Shown in pieces: positions 1 through 8,743 of a stretch of 12,791 nucleotides of DNA (position 1 is the first letter of the stretch; each line of letters opens with the position of its first letter). The translations under genes were made by a program, and so were the position numbers. The DNA is from an uncultured archaeon (GTDB lineage Archaea > Asgardarchaeota > Lokiarchaeia > Sigyniarchaeales > Promethearchaeaceae), in NCBI GenBank assembly GCA_964426185.1, contig CAYRPF010000084.1, positions 1-12,791 of the forward strand. Direction: 5' to 3'. A model generated the notes under the pieces. It was not told where the DNA came from. It did no database searches and saw only the letters and a list, made by a program, of their open reading frames with translations.

Positions 1-125
1 TCTTCGATTTCAAGCATGTGAGGGACGGTCTGGGGTGTTAGTTATTCCTTTCTGATAAAATAATATCAGATACTCAGATGACTGGGAAATGGAAAAAATA
101 ACGTCCTGACAAAGTGGTGATTATC

Positions 126-548
126 ATGAGTGAAGAAGCAACATATAAAATCAATATTTCTGCTGCAGGAAAAGATGCACCGGAAGAATTTAGAGGACAA
201 ACCAAAGTTCTCGTTTTAGAACCAGCTAAATTCGCCCCATTAGTGGGCAAAAAAATCGGCGAGACCTTTAATGGTGGGATTATTGGATTACCTGGTTATC
301 AACTAATGATTACCGGCGGAAGTGATGCAGGTGGTATTCCCATGCGTCGTGATGTTCACGGTCCTATCAAACGCCGAGTTCTTCTGAGTAAAGGTCCTTG
401 TTATCATCCTAAACATCGGGGAGAAAAGAAACGCAAAATAGTACGAGGTAATGAAATTACTGACGATATGGCGCAGATCAATACTATTGTAGTCAAATAT
501 GGTAAAGAAAAACTCTTTACTGCGAAAAAAGAGGAGGAATCTGAATAA
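126..548 (+). CDS. rps6e: 30S ribosomal protein S6e (eS6)
   Basis: Motifs GKKIGE, IGLPGYQLMITGGSDAGGIPMRRDVHG and GEKKRKIVRGNEI are typical of archaeal eS6. Start moved from GTG114 to ATG126 because GGTGA (116-120) is an SD just upstream of it. Confidence 0.96.
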   Translation: MSEEATYKINISAAGKDAPEEFRGQTKVLVLEPAKFAPLVGKKIGETFNGGIIGLPGYQLMITGGSDAGGIPMRRDVHGPIKRRVLLSKGPCYHPKHRGEKKRKIVRGNEITDDMAQINTIVVKYGKEKLFTAKKEEESE

Positions 549-596: not shown

Positions 597-779
597 ATGG
601 TAAAAATCTTAAAATGCTCATATTGTGGTAAAGAAATCCCCCCTGGTACAGGGATGACCTACGTGAAAAATGATGGTACAATTTATCAATTCTGCACAAA
701 GAAATGTAAAACAATGCGATTGAAATACCATAAACCGGCAAGAAAAGTGCGCTGGACTAACTTCTTTGGAGAAAAATAA
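597..779 (+). CDS. rpl24e: 50S ribosomal protein L24e (eL24), Zn-binding
   Basis: CSYCGKEIPPGTGMTYVKNDG..YQFCTKKC...PARKVRWT is the eL24 signature; SD GGAGTGA precedes ATG. Confidence 0.96.
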   Translation: MVKILKCSYCGKEIPPGTGMTYVKNDGTIYQFCTKKCKTMRLKYHKPARKVRWTNFFGEK

Positions 780-882: not shown

Positions 883-1572
883 GTGAACCAAATGAAGGAT
901 CCAGATCTAGAACAAGCATTGCTTGATGTAGATTTCCTATCAGTTCAGAGTATTTTACATTCTTGGGTTAAAGATAACCCAGATATTGATGAAATTTTAG
1001 AAAAAATCCAAGTAATTATGGAATCAATTGGAAAAAAATGGGAAAATAGTTCAATTGCACTTTCTCAAGTTTATATGGCGGGTAAACTGGTTGAACAAAA
1101 TCTGAATGAACTTTTTGAAGATTTCTCCCATTCTATTCAAAAAAATCAGCCTGAATCTCTTCAAAAAGACGTATATACAGGAGTATTCGAAGATTATCAT
1201 GCACTAGGCCAGATAATTTTGAATTCTTTTTTAAGATTAGCGGGCTATAATGTAATAAACTTGGGAATTGGGTTAACTAAAGGAGAATTATGTGAACAAG
1301 TCAAAAATCAACAAATTTCAATATTACTATTATCGACTTTAATGCTTTCTTCTGCCAAACATTTGGAAGAGACAATTAGAGATCTACGAAAGATTAAGCC
1401 TAACATAGTTATCTTCGTGGGAGGTGCCCCATTCAACTTTCAACAAGATCTGTGGGAACGGATAGGAGCAGATTATTATGGAGCTTCTCCAAATGCGATT
1501 TTACCGATATTAAATAATATTTTTAAGCAGTTCAATCCATCTAATGGACATTCCATGGAGGTATTCCAATGA
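883..1572 (+). CDS. Cobalamin (corrinoid)-binding protein, cap domain plus B12-binding Rossmann domain
   Basis: Cap-like IMESIGKKWE...LSQVYMAG, DxHxxG motif (EDYHALG; D-G at 1192-1209), SxL (LLSTLM) and GG (FVGGAPF) motifs of His-on corrinoid proteins. Start is GTG883 or ATG892. Confidence 0.9.
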   Translation: MNQMKDPDLEQALLDVDFLSVQSILHSWVKDNPDIDEILEKIQVIMESIGKKWENSSIALSQVYMAGKLVEQNLNELFEDFSHSIQKNQPESLQKDVYTGVFEDYHALGQIILNSFLRLAGYNVINLGIGLTKGELCEQVKNQQISILLLSTLMLSSAKHLEETIRDLRKIKPNIVIFVGGAPFNFQQDLWERIGADYYGASPNAILPILNNIFKQFNPSNGHSMEVFQ

Positions 1573-2579
1573 ATTCAATGGAACGTATTTTTGCTGCAGT
1601 CCAATGGCAGGAAGTTGATCGACTCCCGTTTATTTTGAATTTAACTCATCATGGAGCAAAAGTCTTAAATCTTTCCATTCGAGAATATTATTCCAAAGCA
1701 GAATACATGGTTGAAGGACAAATTAAATTATGGAAAAAATATCAAGATGATGTAGTGATAGGTATTTCCTATTTTGCTTCTGAGTTTAAAGCATGGGGGG
1801 GTGATGTCAAATTTTTCCTTGACGGCCCACCAAACTCAATGAGACCAAATCTTACAACACCCGAGGCAATTTTTGCAGCAAAACCACCTCAAATAGATGA
1901 TATTCCCGAATTTACTGAAACATTAAAAACTATTCGCCACTTAAAGGAATATTTCGGAGATAAAGTTCCAATAATTGGGGGGATCATATCTCCTTTTTCT
2001 TTTCCTATAATGCAGATGGGATTTAACAAATATATTGAACTCTTATATCAAGATCGAAATACATTTAACGAACTAATGAAAAAGAATATGGAACATGCTG
2101 TGAATTGGGCAAATCGGCAGTTAGAAGCTGGTGCAACAATGATAGTATATTTTGATCCGATGGGAAGTGCTGAAATGATTCCCCCTTCATTATATTTGGA
2201 AACCGGGTATCAAATCGCCAAGAGAACTGTGGCCCAAATAAAGGGTCCGGTTGTATATCACTTCGCTTCAAGTAGTTCACAGAAGAACTTACCAAAACTA
2301 ATTGAATTGCCAATTAAAGGTACAAGTATCTCAAACAAAGACAATATTACAGAGTGCTTGAAGATAATGGATAAAAAAGCGGCATTACTCGGAAATCTCA
2401 GCGGAATACAATTAATTCATGCAACACCAAATCAAGTAATCGATAAATTAAATAAAATTGTTAACAATGTTACTCCAAAAACAGGTTTTATTGTATCTGA
2501 TCATCACGGAGAGATTCCATATTTTGTGTCAGATGAAATTCTGACCATCATCTCTCAGTTTTTTCATAAAAAATTCTGA
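1569..2579 (+). CDS. Uroporphyrinogen decarboxylase / MtaA-CmuA family (methylcobamide methyltransferase-like) protein
   Basis: N-terminal MNSMERIFAA..EVDRLP, then VPIIGGIISPFS, QLEAGA..IVYFDP and LLGNL, matching the UroD/MtaA TIM barrel; ATGA overlap with the corrinoid gene implies coupling. Confidence 0.85.
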   Translation: MNSMERIFAAVQWQEVDRLPFILNLTHHGAKVLNLSIREYYSKAEYMVEGQIKLWKKYQDDVVIGISYFASEFKAWGGDVKFFLDGPPNSMRPNLTTPEAIFAAKPPQIDDIPEFTETLKTIRHLKEYFGDKVPIIGGIISPFSFPIMQMGFNKYIELLYQDRNTFNELMKKNMEHAVNWANRQLEAGATMIVYFDPMGSAEMIPPSLYLETGYQIAKRTVAQIKGPVVYHFASSSSQKNLPKLIELPIKGTSISNKDNITECLKIMDKKAALLGNLSGIQLIHATPNQVIDKLNKIVNNVTPKTGFIVSDHHGEIPYFVSDEILTIISQFFHKKF

Positions 2580-2609
2580 ACATACAGACTCAATTTTTTT
2601 TTAAAATAG

Positions 2610-2615
2610 AGGAGG
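2610..2615 (+). promoter_or_regulatory. Shine-Dalgarno AGGAGG upstream of in-frame ATA 2623
   Basis: AGGAGG lies 7 nt before ATA2623, which is in frame with the PAS gene, and 43 nt before ATG2659. Confidence 0.6.
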
Positions 2616-2622
2616 AATAAAC

Positions 2623-3552
2623 ATAAAAAGTATAGCAGATTTCACGTTTGCTTTAGAAATGATCAAAGAAATAGCCCAACTTCAAAATCGAAATGAAATT
2701 ATTCAAAAAGGAAAGGAAATAATTCACCTTCTCTTTGCACCGATTAGGGTTGAATTTAATGAAGAAATACCTGATTATATGGTTGAATTTAATGAAGAAG
2801 CGCTGATGAAATATAATTTTTCGTGGTCGACAGATGAAGAAGATCTTCTATTGAAAATAGCAAAGGGAGAAAAAAATTTCGGTTATATGCTGATTGAAAA
2901 ATTTACTTTTCCTGAATTTAAAAAACGATATATAACTCCAGCTCTATTAATAATGGATGTTTTGGCTTTATGCTTAGAAAATGCTGCAAATTTAGAAAAA
3001 ATCAAGCAGGAACAAGAAAAATTCCGTTTACTATTGGAATACACCGTAAATTGGGAATCTTTTTACCATCCTCAAAAAGGTTTTCTTTACATTTCACCTT
3101 CTTTTGAAAAAATAACGGGTTATTCATGTTTAGAAGCTTATAAAGACCCAAATATATTAGAAAAATTGATTTTTCCAGAAGATTTCCCACTTTTCGAGCA
3201 GTATTTTTCTTCTAAAAAGAAATCAGTGGAGCTTCGAATTCGGGGCAAAAAGGGAAATATTGTATGGATAAATTTTACTGCAACCAAAATTTTCTCTGAT
3301 ACGAAAGAATTTCTTGGGATTAGAGCAAGTTGTGCGGATATCACTGATAAGAAAAAGAAAGAATTTGAGTTGGATAAACTAAAAGGTATGATACCCATCT
3401 GTGCTAGTTGTAAACGAATTCGTACAGATGATGGCTATTGGAATCAAATTGAATCTTACATCGCTTCCATTTCCGACATCGAATTTACACATTCTTTATG
3501 CCCAGATTGTTTAAAAAAATATTTCCCTGAAAAAGAAAAGAAAAAGAAATAA
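2623..3552 (+). CDS. PAS/PAC sensor protein with N-terminal GAF-like segment and C-terminal Cys4 (CxxC...CxxC) Zn-ribbon; no histidine kinase domain
   Basis: PAS/PAC at about 3016-3345 (EKFRLLLE..YISPSFEKITGYS..LIFPED..ELRIRGKKGNIVWI..ADIT). C-terminal GMIPICASCKRIR..GYWNQIESYI..FTHSLCPDC at 3385-3510. Start is either ATG2659 (track) or ATA2623 (SD-supported). Confidence 0.82.
   Translation: MKSIADFTFALEMIKEIAQLQNRNEIIQKGKEIIHLLFAPIRVEFNEEIPDYMVEFNEEALMKYNFSWSTDEEDLLLKIAKGEKNFGYMLIEKFTFPEFKKRYITPALLIMDVLALCLENAANLEKIKQEQEKFRLLLEYTVNWESFYHPQKGFLYISPSFEKITGYSCLEAYKDPNILEKLIFPEDFPLFEQYFSSKKKSVELRIRGKKGNIVWINFTATKIFSDTKEFLGIRASCADITDKKKKEFELDKLKGMIPICASCKRIRTDDGYWNQIESYIASISDIEFTHSLCPDCLKKYFPEKEKKKK
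2748..2799 (+). repeat. Perfect 19-nt direct repeat (GGTTGAATTTAATGAAGAA x2, 33-nt period) inside the PAS gene
   Basis: Copies at 2748-2766 and 2781-2799, encoding VEFNEE-IPDYM-VEFNEE. Confidence 0.9.
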
Positions 3553-3563
3553 TTCTCTTAGAT

Positions 3564-4673
3564 TTAGCAAATTTGCCAATCCAAGAATGAACTCTTTAAT
3601 TTATTAATTGCTTCATTGTTTTTCTTTTTCTTTTTTTCATTATTTTTAATATTTGACCAACATTCAGAACACCAGTGAGTTTTTAAGGCAATTAGTTTAA
3701 TTTCTTTATGACCACAAGAATTACATAAAACTTTTCCACATGATTGACAGTAATTAAGATTTCTAAAATACTTAACAGATTTAGTGATTTTATGGCATTC
3801 TTGACAAAGAATAGTGGTTTTGTCTAATAAACTATCGATTTTATTTTGATTTAACACTTTAGACACTTTACCTTCATGTAACTGTAATTTAATATCGATA
3901 TCTTCTCCAATTTTACCTTTCATTTCAACTGATGACCCCCAATAAATAGATGAGAACTGAACATTAATCTCTGAAATATCCGCGGTGCAAACCATTCTAC
4001 GTTTTTGATTATTTTGATCCTTGAATTCTTTTTCGATAGTAGTGGTTTGTTGTATGATCTCTTTCACAGTTGATATTTCATTTTTTTTTGGGGCAGTATC
4101 AATTGAATATTTAAAACCCTCTTTTTCAATAATATCAGTTAATTGATCTAAATCCATCCATACAGTTTTTGGGCGATTTTCTACAATCAACCAGTTTTGG
4201 GTAGGATGATTTACTAATAAATGATTATCATATTTCATATCCCATACCCACGTCCTCGTTCTATTTGCAAATTGGTGCCAGAGATTAAATTGATAAAATT
4301 GAAAAGGTGTAAATTTTATTTTAGAGTAACTAATATCCGATAGAAACTTTGAAGGAGGGTTTGGATAACTAAATATTGCTCTATCAATAAATTCATGAAA
4401 CTCTAATTCTAAAGAGGTCTTATTTATCGGTCTGGTTAGCTTATCAAAGGGTGAAACACCTTTTGCATCCACTTCAGCTGTTCTCCCTGCTGAATCAAAA
4501 AAGGGATAATTTGGAATTTGCAATTGAATTTTTTTCTTATTGAAATGGAATAACTTATAAAAAATATATCCCAGAATTACTGCCAAAGTAAAAAAACTTG
4601 CATATAATACAAATGCAGTAGTTTCTGATTGGATGATGAACATTGGGAAGTATACAATCAGATATGATGCCAT
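3564..4673 (-). CDS. Hypothetical membrane-anchored protein with C-terminal Cys8 FYVE-like zinc finger
   Basis: Hydrophobic N-terminus (AFVLYASFFTLAVILGYIFY then K-rich); C-terminal CxxC-x15-CxxC-x4-CxxC-x14-CxxC. Confidence 0.75.
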   Translation of the reverse strand: MASYLIVYFPMFIIQSETTAFVLYASFFTLAVILGYIFYKLFHFNKKKIQLQIPNYPFFDSAGRTAEVDAKGVSPFDKLTRPINKTSLELEFHEFIDRAIFSYPNPPSKFLSDISYSKIKFTPFQFYQFNLWHQFANRTRTWVWDMKYDNHLLVNHPTQNWLIVENRPKTVWMDLDQLTDIIEKEGFKYSIDTAPKKNEISTVKEIIQQTTTIEKEFKDQNNQKRRMVCTADISEINVQFSSIYWGSSVEMKGKIGEDIDIKLQLHEGKVSKVLNQNKIDSLLDKTTILCQECHKITKSVKYFRNLNYCQSCGKVLCNSCGHKEIKLIALKTHWCSECWSNIKNNEKKKKKNNEAINKLKSSFLDWQIC

Positions 4674-4823
4674 ATTAATATCTCTATAAACTTAGTTAAA
4701 AAGATGTCGAATTAAATAATCGCTCACTTCTTTCACTATTTTTTTCCGCGATTTTTTCGAGTTGAAGCGCTTTTTCACGCAATATTTCCTCATAATCCTT
4801 TTCCATCGCATCCAGCAGAGAAC

Positions 4824-4843
4824 CGAAAAATTTTATTTTTATG
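4824..4843 (+). promoter_or_regulatory. Putative BRE/TATA promoter of the L7Ae-eS28 operon
   Basis: CGAAAAA followed by TTTTATTTTTAT about 105 nt upstream of the L7Ae ATG; pattern match only, in AT-rich DNA. Confidence 0.35.
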
Positions 4844-4907
4844 CCACTTTTGGATGATCATTGGTTAATGTTCTTAATGTTCTTAACCGATGAAATAATG
4901 ATAAGTA

Positions 4908-4937
4908 AACCCATGAGGGTTAACTTTGAATGAGGTT
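4908..4937 (+). promoter_or_regulatory. Putative kink-turn/K-loop in the L7Ae 5' UTR overlapping the SD
   Basis: C-stem AACC(4908-11)/GGTT(4934-37), 3-nt bulge CAT, tandem GA(4915-16)/GA(4932-33); GAGGT is the SD, 9 nt before ATG4946. Confidence 0.6.
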
Positions 4938-4945
4938 GACACAAT

Positions 4946-5314
4946 ATGTCTTACGTAGATATAGAAATTCCGGATGCTCTTAAAACCAAGATTTTAGACT
5001 TAGTCACTGCAACAGTGAACAAGCAAGGCAAGATCAAAAAAGGTATGAATGAAACCACCAAAGCCATTGAACGTGGAGTGGCTAAATTGGTTGTTATCGC
5101 AGGGGATATTACTCCTGCAGAAATTGTAATGCATTTACCCGCAATTTCCAAAGAAAAGAAAGTGCCATATGTTTTTGTAGATAGTCGCGCAGAATTAGGT
5201 AAAGCAGCTCAAATCAGTATTCCTTGCTCGGCTTTGGCTATAACTCAAGTCCCTAAAGATGTAGAGAGCGATTTAAAAGATATTGTAAAGAAAGCGGCCG
5301 CATTACGCAAGTAA
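4946..5314 (+). CDS. rpl7ae: 50S ribosomal protein L7Ae (eL8), K-turn binding protein
   Basis: [38 protein letters not shown]...[15 protein letters not shown] is the L7Ae signature. Confidence 0.97.
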
Positions 5315-5327
5315 GGAGGGGATTATT

Positions 5328-5567
5328 ATAGCAAAAAAAAATACCAGTGATAGTTCAACAAGATCTCCTGGAGAATGTAATGCGCAAGTAATACAAATAA
5401 TCGGTCGAACGGGTCTGACAGGTGAGATTCTGCAGTGTAAGGTTCGAGTTTTAGACGGTCGAGATAAAAATAGGATTATCACGCGAAATATTAAGGGCCC
5501 AGTGCGATTAAACGATGTGGTAATTCTGCGAGAGTCTGAGAGGGAAGCAAAACGCATCCGCAAATAA
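5328..5567 (+). CDS. rps28e: 30S ribosomal protein S28e (eS28), non-canonical ATA start; absent from the ORF track
   Basis: Manual translation: (M)[78 protein letters not shown]. Has the eS28 motifs [13 protein letters not shown] and LRESEREA, follows L7Ae as usual, and has GGAGG at 5315-5319. Confidence 0.95.
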
Positions 5568-5795
5568 ACTTTCGCAAAAAACCCAATACCCTACCACAAT
5601 TCATTATTCTATTTTTTTCCTTTTTACAACCTAAATTCTAAATCTGTTAATTTGTAGTAGTATTGAAAGGGATGCAATCATACCTACAATTCAACAAAAT
5701 GCAATTTTGATATATGCATTTTCTCTCCAGATATTTAGCAGGTGCTTTTCAAAAAATGCTCTATATTTTTATAGAATCGCGGTTTTCTGCTTATT

Positions 5796-6728
5796 ATGTT
5801 GCTGGTAGATTCTATTGTAACTCGTACAATAAATTTAGATTTTATTTATTTTGATCTTTTATTCTTAGCATTTTGGATTTTTTTCATGATGCGAAAAAAA
5901 TATTGGATTCCCATTTTGTGGGGAGTCATCGGTTGGGCTGTATATTTATTCGTGGATTATTTTCTCTGGTATAGAGTGATGCACTCTCGGCAATATGATG
6001 GTTCAATCAATTCCGATTTATTTTTCCTGTGGTTCTGCCTTTCTGCTGGGTTTGCGCAATTTTCCTACGTGGCTGTGATGTTAGAAAAGCGAAATTGGCG
6101 TGAAATCTTAATCTGGACTCTATTTTTTTACTTGGGATGGACAATGGTTGGAATTTTGTCCCAATGGCTATCGATCAATGATTCCTTAATTCGAGTTAGT
6201 CGTAATATGAACGCGTTGAAACAGCGTCTATCTTTCACATTAATGGCTGTGGGAAATTTCCTCATTGCTTTAGTATTGAAGGCACTAAAGAAGATAACTT
6301 GGCATGATGTTTTCTATCTATTTCTAGTGGGCACATTGGTAGAAATGAATTTAGAATTCTCTTTAGCGGTTTCGGGTATCAGATTAGAGCAAGGTGAGTG
6401 GAGCTTTCAGCTTTTTATCGTTAATACCCTTATCGAATTTAATATGGGAATTGTGTTGATGTTCTTACTCTGGAGCTTCACGGTCAAAGGTCCAAAGAGG
6501 ATGTTCGATCCTATGATTCAGTGGAAGGATAGGAAGAAAATTACTACCAACTTTAATCTTTTATATTATTTATCTACGATTTCAGAATCTGAAAGCGTTA
6601 AGGAAAGAAATGTGAGAAATATGCTGAAAAGATGGCTTTATCAACTTGATTCAAACCAAAAATTATATCCATCAGAGCAAATTCAAAAGGAAATAGAATA
6701 TGTCAACGTAAATAAAGAAAGTAAATAA
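5796..6728 (+). CDS. Hypothetical polytopic membrane protein
   Basis: 310-aa ORF with about 7 hydrophobic segments and a soluble C-terminal tail; no family recognised with confidence. Confidence 0.75.
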   Translation: MLLVDSIVTRTINLDFIYFDLLFLAFWIFFMMRKKYWIPILWGVIGWAVYLFVDYFLWYRVMHSRQYDGSINSDLFFLWFCLSAGFAQFSYVAVMLEKRNWREILIWTLFFYLGWTMVGILSQWLSINDSLIRVSRNMNALKQRLSFTLMAVGNFLIALVLKALKKITWHDVFYLFLVGTLVEMNLEFSLAVSGIRLEQGEWSFQLFIVNTLIEFNMGIVLMFLLWSFTVKGPKRMFDPMIQWKDRKKITTNFNLLYYLSTISESESVKERNVRNMLKRWLYQLDSNQKLYPSEQIQKEIEYVNVNKESK

Positions 6729-6887
6729 AACAAACAAACAAAAATAAAAATATTTTCCGATTTCGTGGAGAGACAAATGTAAGATTAAGAAGACCTGGTA
6801 GAATACTTGATTATATTCGTTAAAAATACAATATGAGAAGGAAAATAAAAAAATGTCACGAAAAATAATTATATAAGATAATTAAGG

Positions 6888-8477
6888 TTATATCTGCATT
6901 TTTTTACCCAAAAGGGCATGCCAAAGCATTGAGCTAATCGACATGCCTTCTTTATATGATTTTCCGCCCATTATAAGTGATTCCACCTTTAATTCTCCCA
7001 ATTTATTCGGCTCCATCTGAAGAGGATTTTTATTCAAAATGACCATATCCGCAATTTTTCCGACTTCCAGCGAACCGCGCTCGTTCTCTTCAAAACTCGT
7101 ATAAGCAATCTCATAAGTATACATTTTCAGGGCTTCTTGAATTGTCAAAGACTGGGAAGGATCATAGGGATGGTTGCAGGCTCCATATATTCCATCAATC
7201 GGATTGGGATGAGTTACAGGTCCGTCGGATCCGCCGCTCAGATGAACTCCGGAATCCACAATCCTTCGTAAAGGAGAACTGGTTTTTACCCGATCTCCCA
7301 AGATTTCGTTTAAATAACTTTCCGGTTCCAGCGGCGATACCAAAAATCCCGGCTGTAACGTGATTCCAATTCCCAATTTCTTGCATTTTTCGATATCTTC
7401 TGGCGATATTAAACAGGCATGAATTAAGGTATGGCGGTGATTTTCACGGGGAAAATCTTTAAGTGCCGCTTCCAGAGCGTGAATGGCTTGTTTTACTGCA
7501 GCATCTCCAATCACATGCATAGCAATCTGCAATCCCGCCCTGTTTGCAGCCTTTGTAAATTTAATTACTTCTTCATCAGAATGAAACAAAATCCCTTTGT
7601 TATTTGGGTCATTACTATAGGGTTTCGTGAGAGCTGCATCACATGCCCCGAAGCAACCATCCAAGGCCGTGGCAAAACACCCCCCTATTCGGGGAAGTTT
7701 ACGCTTTAGAACTTTATTTACCTCCATGGTTTGAAAAAACAAACGAGTTTGAATGTTATTTTTATGAGCCTGTGCCCGCCCTATCATCATGGCCAAGGTC
7801 ACATCCATATCTTTGGGGAACCCTATGCTTTCCACAGAATGAATCAATCCCACCCCGTATTTGGCAATTTTATCATAACCTTTAATTATGCATTTAACCA
7901 AAGTAAGGGGAGATATATAAGAAGTGGCAAAATCTAACCCTTCATAATAAGCTTCGTTGAAAAGATGTCCCACATCTTCCTTAAAACCTCGGCATTTTCG
8001 AACTTTCTCGGGAAAAATGTTCATCATAGCGGAATTAGCCACTAAACTATGTCCATCGTACCCAATAATAATTAGGGGCTTCTCTGAGAAGATTTTATCG
8101 AGTTCCTCACGAGTAATCAGACGTTTTTCGGCTAAGCTGTGTTTTGAAATACCAAAACCTGCAATAATTTTGAATTTTTTTGATTCTGGGATGAAGTTCT
8201 TAATTATTTTTCCGATATCTGCAAAATTTCTAGCCTCACGCACGTCGAAATAAGCAGAGGCAATTGTAGCCCAATTCGAATAATGAATATGCCCGTCACC
8301 GAAAGCCGGAAGTAAAGCTTTTTCACCTAACTCAATTACACTATTTTTTGATGCAGCAGAATATTCAAGGGGAATATCATTTCCTATATAAACAATTCGG
8401 CTTCCATCAGAAATCAGGTACGAAAAAACGTGATCGTGTTTATCACAGGTGATAATTGTTCCATGATAGATTTTCAT
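6888..8477 (-). CDS. Metal-dependent amidohydrolase (Amidohydro_3, YtcJ-like)
   Basis: LLPAFGDGHIH (HxH), DGHSLVANS, MHVIGDAA, LIHA, GGSDGP and ERGSLEVGKIADMVIL motifs. Confidence 0.9.
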   Translation of the reverse strand: MKIYHGTIITCDKHDHVFSYLISDGSRIVYIGNDIPLEYSAASKNSVIELGEKALLPAFGDGHIHYSNWATIASAYFDVREARNFADIGKIIKNFIPESKKFKIIAGFGISKHSLAEKRLITREELDKIFSEKPLIIIGYDGHSLVANSAMMNIFPEKVRKCRGFKEDVGHLFNEAYYEGLDFATSYISPLTLVKCIIKGYDKIAKYGVGLIHSVESIGFPKDMDVTLAMMIGRAQAHKNNIQTRLFFQTMEVNKVLKRKLPRIGGCFATALDGCFGACDAALTKPYSNDPNNKGILFHSDEEVIKFTKAANRAGLQIAMHVIGDAAVKQAIHALEAALKDFPRENHRHTLIHACLISPEDIEKCKKLGIGITLQPGFLVSPLEPESYLNEILGDRVKTSSPLRRIVDSGVHLSGGSDGPVTHPNPIDGIYGACNHPYDPSQSLTIQEALKMYTYEIAYTSFEENERGSLEVGKIADMVILNKNPLQMEPNKLGELKVESLIMGGKSYKEGMSISSMLWHALLGKKMQI

Positions 8478-8743
8478 GTTAAATATCTTTGCTGATAGCC
8501 CATAAAAAAATTCTCATTAAATCTGAAATGGTTGAAATAGTTAAAAATTTGAAAAAAGAGTTAGAAATTGAAATATCGTTGATTAGGCATTTTATAAACA
8601 TAACATTTGTATTTAAAATTTATATTCAAACGTTAGAATAATAATGAAAAATCGAAATGTATTTTCAGTTGGAACAATTAAAACAAAAATTTTTTGTTCG
8701 ATGCCGCTTTATTTGGTGATAAGTATTATAATATGTGATAAAA

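Follow-up and report, generated by a model that had tools for sequence, protein, structure and literature searches.

Archaeal genes have been reviewed as starting at AUG, GUG and UUG only (PMC7531240), and the locus considered here raises the question of how a conserved ribosomal protein gene that offers none of these codons could be translated. The gene, rps28e, follows rpl7ae on contig C84, whose full 12,791 bp constitute the window analysed here and which belongs to a 155-contig metagenome-assembled genome (MAG) of 3.26 Mb and 34% G+C that is 92% complete. In a first-pass annotation it had been proposed that the eS28 protein is initiated at an AUA codon behind a Shine-Dalgarno (SD) sequence, that initiation of this kind may be used throughout the lineage, and that it would hide or truncate genes in automated annotation. 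The reading favoured here is that rps28e is an intact, functional and single-copy gene in which an ancestral ATG has changed into ATA, and that initiation would still take place at AUA 5328, in keeping with a lineage-wide tolerance of near-cognate codons; judging from sequence comparison, we give this reading a probability of about 0.6. The features on which the argument turns are collected in Table 1.

Table 1. Positions and initiation signals of the features discussed (positions without a contig name refer to the window; "here" is the genome of the window and G001 its sister genome; spacers in nt).
Feature	Position	Strand	Start codon, signals and remarks
S6e	114-548		
60-aa ORF, probably L24e	597-779		synteny with locus L203
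AGGAGG Shine-Dalgarno of PAS-domain gene	2610-2615	+	6-nt match, spacer 7
PAS-domain protein gene, probable extent	2623-3552	+	PAS_3/PAS_9; ATA 2623-2625 in frame with called ATG 2659
rpl7ae (L7Ae), upstream cistron	4946-5314	+	ATG start, TAA stop 5312-5314; PF01248, 92.9 bits
In-frame TAA closing the eS28 frame upstream	5286-5288	+	
AGGAGG Shine-Dalgarno of rps28e (GGAGG = 5315-5319)	5314-5319	+	6-nt match to 16S 3' end, spacer 8
GG, then ATT ATT	5322-5327	+	alternative near-cognate starts, spacers 2 and 5
ATA, most likely initiation codon of rps28e	5328-5330	+	ancestral ATG position, from alignments and spacing; ATA here where G001 has ATG
rps28e (eS28) coding sequence	5328-5567	+	79 codons plus TAA (5565-5567)
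A9 run	5333-5341	+	codons 2-5 (A-K-K-N)
TFE			ATT in both species; AGGTGA, spacer 9; first canonical codon +53 / +93
DRG GTPase			ATC here, ATT in G001; GGAGG, spacer 10
RNA polymerase A'			ATC; AGGTG, spacer 9
RHH regulator			ATT in both species; AGGAGG, spacer 8; stop two codons upstream in G001
eS19			ATT in both species
Zinc-finger protein			ATA in both species; from GGAGG scan, not orthology screen; outside the 14 genes
Gene C7:4345	C7:4345	+	ACG in both species behind GGAGG; TTG five codons 5' here, inside the SD
MutL			ATT here where G001 has ATG
C67			ATC here where G001 has ATG
C27	C27:5892	+	CTG here where G001 has ATG
C116	C116:1495	+	ACG behind GGAGGTGA here where G001 has ATG
aIF1 (SUI1)	C16:47744-48085	+	TTG behind GGAGTGA; weak but canonical

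All the coordinates that the first-pass annotation had given for the junction (the closing TAA, GGAGG, ATT5322, ATT5325 and ATA5328) are correct. It had also claimed that no in-frame ATG, GTG or TTG precedes the GTG of a G-P-V motif, and this is borne out: the first such codon of the eS28 frame is the GTG at 5502, 58 codons past the ATA and within the conserved domain. The SD and the L7Ae stop codon overlap by one base, the A at 5314. The eS28 product scores 96.4 bits with the Pfam family PF01200 (Ribosomal_S28e), for which the cut-off is 25, its residues 18-77 falling on profile positions 5-64, while the L7Ae product is 88% identical to its ortholog in G001. An Rfam scan of the window (E up to 0.1) returned no match, and no terminator was found in a scan of 4600-5900.

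An assembly error, a pseudogene and a second gene copy are all unlikely explanations for the missing start codon. If base 5330 were a sequencing, assembly or consensus error, the organism would truly carry ATG; the fragmented state of the MAG and the fact that only one G-to-A change sets it apart from its closest relative at this point could be taken to favor this view. However, the same ATA is present in an NCBI contig of GCA_054388175.1, which matches positions 4735-8567 of the window at 99.84% identity (6 mismatches in 3833 nt). This makes a one-off assembly error unlikely, although the independence of this second assembly, from the same species, can be judged by the six mismatches alone and both assemblies may share one study. 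In addition, non-canonical starts recur at conserved positions both here and in the closed 4.36-Mb sister genome, and an error at 5330 is in our view extremely unlikely. An exact-pattern scan of metagenome contigs gave no match.

A recently inactivated pseudogene would also account for the missing start, provided that eS28 is dispensable or supplied by an unassembled copy, and in a genome that is 92% complete such a copy could be missing. Against this, the frame is intact, and over the 59 codons that precede the first canonical one, most differences from G001 affect third positions (11/8/37 by codon position). Two of the six mismatches between the assemblies of this species lie within rps28e, at 5472 and 5486, and both are synonymous changes of Arg codons. 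A genome-wide profile search found a single eS28 match in the 3.26 Mb (95.9 bits), in its conserved place beside L7Ae, which stands directly 5' of eS28 in two other assemblies as well, and exactly one match was present per genome in 41 out of 41 genomes searched. A second, canonical rps28e copy, named beforehand as something that would speak against AUA initiation, was thus not found, the gene being single-copy in this genome, and we regard inactivation as highly unlikely. That a ribosomal protein gene which is conserved, present in one copy and subject to purifying selection should lack a canonical start, and do so identically in a second assembly, is more than chance.

The frame could also be entered from elsewhere, either through a +1 frameshift from L7Ae that would produce a fusion protein or from a different start by slippage along the A9 run; the L7Ae stop is 13 nt 5' of the ATA, and the run lies just after it. 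Nevertheless, ATG, GTG and TTG are absent from every frame between 5312 and 5346, so that slippage on A9 cannot supply a start, and the reading frame on both sides of the run agrees with the A-K-K of relatives, which indicates that there is no indel at this point. A shift out of L7Ae would be confined to 5289-5311, where no slippery motif is seen, and relatives have separate genes, each with its own start at the aligned codon. The probability that we attach to these two routes is negligible.

The intact gene would most likely be started at one of three near-cognate codons, and the initiation signals of the genome bear on the choice among them. SD sites have been called rare in Lokiarchaea (PMC7531240, PMC12993045). 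In the present genome, the 3' end of the 16S rRNA (contig C13) reads …GGATCACCTCCT, from which the full SD is deduced to be GGAGGTGA. SD 5-mers are 5-7 times enriched 5' of confident ATG starts, and the spacer between the end of the GGAGG equivalent and the start codon peaks at 7-9 nt among confident starts.

ATA5328 had been singled out as the likely start of eS28, a choice that both alignment and spacing uphold. The comparison of rps28e starts in related genomes, suggested at the outset, places ATG, TTG or GTG at the aligned codon in 28 of 29 same-order relatives (in the 29th, G009, it is not resolved), followed within the family by A-K-K or a variant thereof, and the spacer of 8 nt falls within the optimum. 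In G001 the arrangement is GGAGG-N8-ATG. The closest relative, a Logan contig of ERR15087787 whose eS28 protein is 89% identical, reads GGAGGGTATTATT-ATG-GCA-AAA where the window has GGAGGGGATTATT-ATA-GCA-AAA, a single G-to-A transition, and the ATT ATT of this relative merely separates the SD from ATG.

The main competitor is near-cognate initiation at ATT5325 (or ATT5322), to give a product beginning M-I-A-K-K…, the ribosome having taken the neighbouring AUU after the change of ATG to ATA. Most of the near-cognate starts shared by the two species are indeed ATT or ATC, AUU is commoner than AUA as a start in this genome, and ATT5325 lies just one codon upstream of the ATA; moreover, the GCA_054388175.1 record gives eS28 as a protein of 80 aa that starts M-I-A-K-K…, that is, called from ATT5325. 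On the other hand, its spacer of 5 nt is about 4.5 times rarer than one of 8 nt among confident starts, and the 2 nt of ATT5322 are nearly unused, compared with 7-10 nt at the other measured non-canonical starts. The same ATT ATT is mere spacer in the closest relative, and ATA starts do exist elsewhere in the genus, one of them kept in both species. Initiation at an ATT is a credible reading, albeit one that we hold to be unlikely. ATA5328 is favoured over both ATT codons by the alignment, by the spacer of the closest relative and by the SD spacing, and we infer that AUA rather than AUU is the codon used and that methionine is inserted there.

The same combination of SD and ATA had been pointed out at 2610-2625, and it is indeed present in front of the PAS-domain gene as AGGAGG, 7 nt and ATA. 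The called ATG at 2659 lies 12 codons 3' of ATA 2623, and the differences in the 13 codons 5' of this ATG are distributed 4/2/10 by codon position. The codon aligned with ATA 2623 is TTG in G001, where it is the first canonical one, and an ACG behind GGTGA in the Logan relative, in which the ATG at 2659 is replaced by ATT. To judge from these alignments the PAS gene probably starts at ATA 2623, a start at ATG 2659 being possible.

Whether such starts are a habit of the lineage was addressed by comparison with G001, of which 2.8 Mb (64%) were compared. The stop-to-stop ORFs of both genomes were matched by blastp, and 1362 ortholog pairs were aligned after removal of the shadow (antisense) ORFs that had inflated the first counts. 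Genes were sought in which conserved coding sequence, with mostly third-position differences, extends at least about 15 codons 5' of the first ATG, GTG or TTG, and the SD was not used in the search. Shorter upstream "extensions" mostly represent conserved 5'UTR or SD DNA in front of a normal ATG, and were left uncounted. By this measure, at least 14 of the 1362 pairs (1.0%, a lower bound for this genome from one pair) lack a canonical start before the conserved coding sequence: C67, EngB, eS28, C17, TFE, MutL, DRG, C27, RHH, C116, C99, RpoA', C9 and eS19. An SD of at least 5 nt stands in front of 10 of these 14 starts, compared with 22% of 469 confirmed ATG starts. The suggestion of use across the lineage is accordingly supported and also broadened, in that ATT and ATC are commoner than ATA and that ACG and CTG occur too.

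A near-cognate start is common to both species in six genes (TFE, DRG, RpoA', RHH, eS19 and the zinc-finger protein gene). In G001, a stop codon lies five codons upstream of the ACG of gene C7:4345. ACG in C116 and CTG in C27 occupy, as do the ATH codons, the SD-optimal spacing where G001 has ATG. The EngB-like GTPase probably has an ATA start corresponding to an ATG in G001, but the two codons were not paired by global alignment. Reverse cases, non-canonical in G001 and ATG or TTG here, comprise at least two ATA and one ATT. When 618 ATG starts of G001 are aligned with the present genome, they fall on ATG 540 times, TTG 12, GTG 10, ATA 6 and ATT 4, and on ATC, ACG and CTG twice each.

The example of eS19 extends beyond the genus. 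Its start is ATT in G000 and G001 and ATA in G002, and ATT again in three genomes of another genus, where a stop lies two codons 5', and in two genomes of another family; ATT or ATA is thus found across three genera of two families, other relatives having ATG or TTG. A genome-wide count of ATA behind GGAGG, which had been put forward as a further check, is suggestive, as ATA makes up 10 of about 60 non-canonical codons at spacers of 7-8 nt. It falls short of being decisive, because ATA already accounts for about 6% in the AT-rich spacer context. A list of "orphan SD" sites based on 5-mers was dropped as too noisy in favor of orthology.

An unusual initiator tRNA as the cause of this tolerance was rejected, since the anticodon stem-loop is standard (GGGCTCATAACCC). 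The simplest model is accordingly that Met-tRNAi pairs imperfectly with the start codon and that a strong SD compensates for the mismatch. In this model, AUA 5328 would be decoded by the usual initiator Met-tRNA (anticodon CAU), with a mismatch at the third position, while the strong duplex between anti-SD and AGGAGG, 8 nt upstream, would keep the 30S subunit in register. Ribosomes terminating on L7Ae, 13 nt upstream, may also pass on to eS28 by coupling. In this Lokiarchaeial genus and its relatives, AUU, AUC and AUA, and also ACG and CUG, would all be tolerated behind a strong SD. The mismatch model is biochemically plausible, since in E. coli extracts AUA does as well as AUG once the initiation region of the mRNA has been optimised (PMC5499595). 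Translational coupling was discarded as a general requirement, since an upstream same-strand ORF ends within 30 nt in two cases only, eS28 (13 nt) and an EngB-like gene (28 nt).

The initiator tRNA gene itself, at C13:33380 (+) and at (-) 2048628 in G001, has a clear 3' half and a 5' part unlike a normal D-arm and acceptor stem. ARAGORN called no tRNA-Met and found only 26-36 tRNAs; the missing tRNA-Met is probably due to introns, and the pattern suggests non-canonical introns or split tRNA genes. Its genome-wide calls include a tRNA-SeC (TCA) and an intron-containing tRNA-Ile (TAT).

AUU, AUC and AUA figure as alternative initiators in NCBI table 11. The AUU starts of bacterial infC and pcnB are the closest established analogue: in E. 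coli, as here, an AUH codon (AUU, AUC or AUA) is directed by an SD and presumably read by the initiator tRNA. However, such starts are occasional in bacteria, whereas here they occur in at least 1% of the compared genes, core information-processing genes among them; the codons here extend to ACG and CUG, and the initiation factors are archaeal and eukaryote-like (aIF1, aIF1A and aIF2). In infC, moreover, the near-cognate start serves the autoregulation of IF3. Here the gene of the proofreading factor aIF1 starts at TTG, and infC-like feedback is thus not evident.

In the literature on Asgard archaea, one published case of a non-canonical start was found, the AtubA tubulin gene of a Kariarchaeaceae MAG, described as having a single "rare ATT start codon" (PMC13394414). 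The likeness is close, as the annotated N-terminus of AtubA is too short and the conserved one is regained by starting from an ATT further 5', plausibly spaced from a ribosome binding site. AtubA was, however, one rare case met during cloning, while the present starts emerge from a genome-wide comparison and include an ATA in a ribosomal protein gene. Ribosome profiling in Haloferax has classed about 30% of putative alternative initiation sites as near-cognate (PMC7261190). The mRNAs of Haloferax and of the archaea reviewed are likewise leadered and SD-containing, but the near-cognate sites of Haloferax were discounted as potential false positives and are not primary starts of conserved genes (PMC7261190). 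Eukaryotes initiate at CUG, ACG, AUU and AUA, so that ACG and CUG are usable in both systems, and their eIF1, eIF1A and eIF2 are homologous to the initiation factors here (PMC6412873, PMC7531240). In contrast, eukaryotes rely on scanning and Kozak context where an SD duplex sets the position here, and their near-cognate codons give rise to alternative isoforms, whereas those described here are the only start of ordinary genes.

A weak start may be of use to the cell in its own right. The rps28e start is TTG or GTG in about 18 of 29 relatives, which are not independent samples, compared with 17% of confirmed starts genome-wide, and this excess of weak codons suggests that a weak start could tune the output of eS28 relative to L7Ae. 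L7Ae also serves sRNPs, and hence a lower ratio of eS28 to L7Ae would make sense. With less than even confidence, we propose that relaxed start-codon stringency is heritable in Lokiarchaeia, and perhaps in Asgard archaea widely, where it would set protein dosage, as in a low level of eS28 relative to the multi-purpose L7Ae.

The warning about hidden and truncated genes applies directly to this locus, where a caller limited to ATG, GTG and TTG is left with a 21-codon remnant of eS28. Callers of this kind would lose eS28, a marker family used in completeness estimates, together with the N-termini of MutL, TFE, DRG and RNA polymerase A' and a GTPase P-loop, which distorts annotation, completeness scores and the inference of gene loss in Asgard MAGs. 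Routine use of AUH, ACG and CUG as the sole start of core genes would imply a proofreading of start codons unlike that of bacterial and euryarchaeal models, and would do so in the archaea most closely related to eukaryotes, in which near-cognate starts are frequent. Should the conserved ATT and ATC starts extend to cultured Lokiarchaeia, these would offer a direct test ground.

Some other features of the window deserve mention. Genes for corrinoid-binding (B12-binding), URO-D-type methyltransferase and PAS proteins (883-3552) separate S6e and the 60-aa ORF from the L7Ae-eS28 pair, and the order from S6e to L7Ae-eS28 is the same in two related assemblies. An ORF of 369 aa on the opposite strand (3564-4673, -) has a sub-threshold match to the FYVE zinc finger (21.8 bits, cut-off 27.8) and may, from its sequence, encode a domain of eukaryote-signature type. 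Finally, the roughly 115 bp at 6751-6865, between the ORF at 5796-6728 and an amidohydrolase gene, are repeated at 94-99% identity on at least eight other contigs (C107, C30, C16, C11, C137, C63, C93 and C6), in several of them at the contig end, and have the look of a dispersed, MITE-like repeat at which the assembly breaks.
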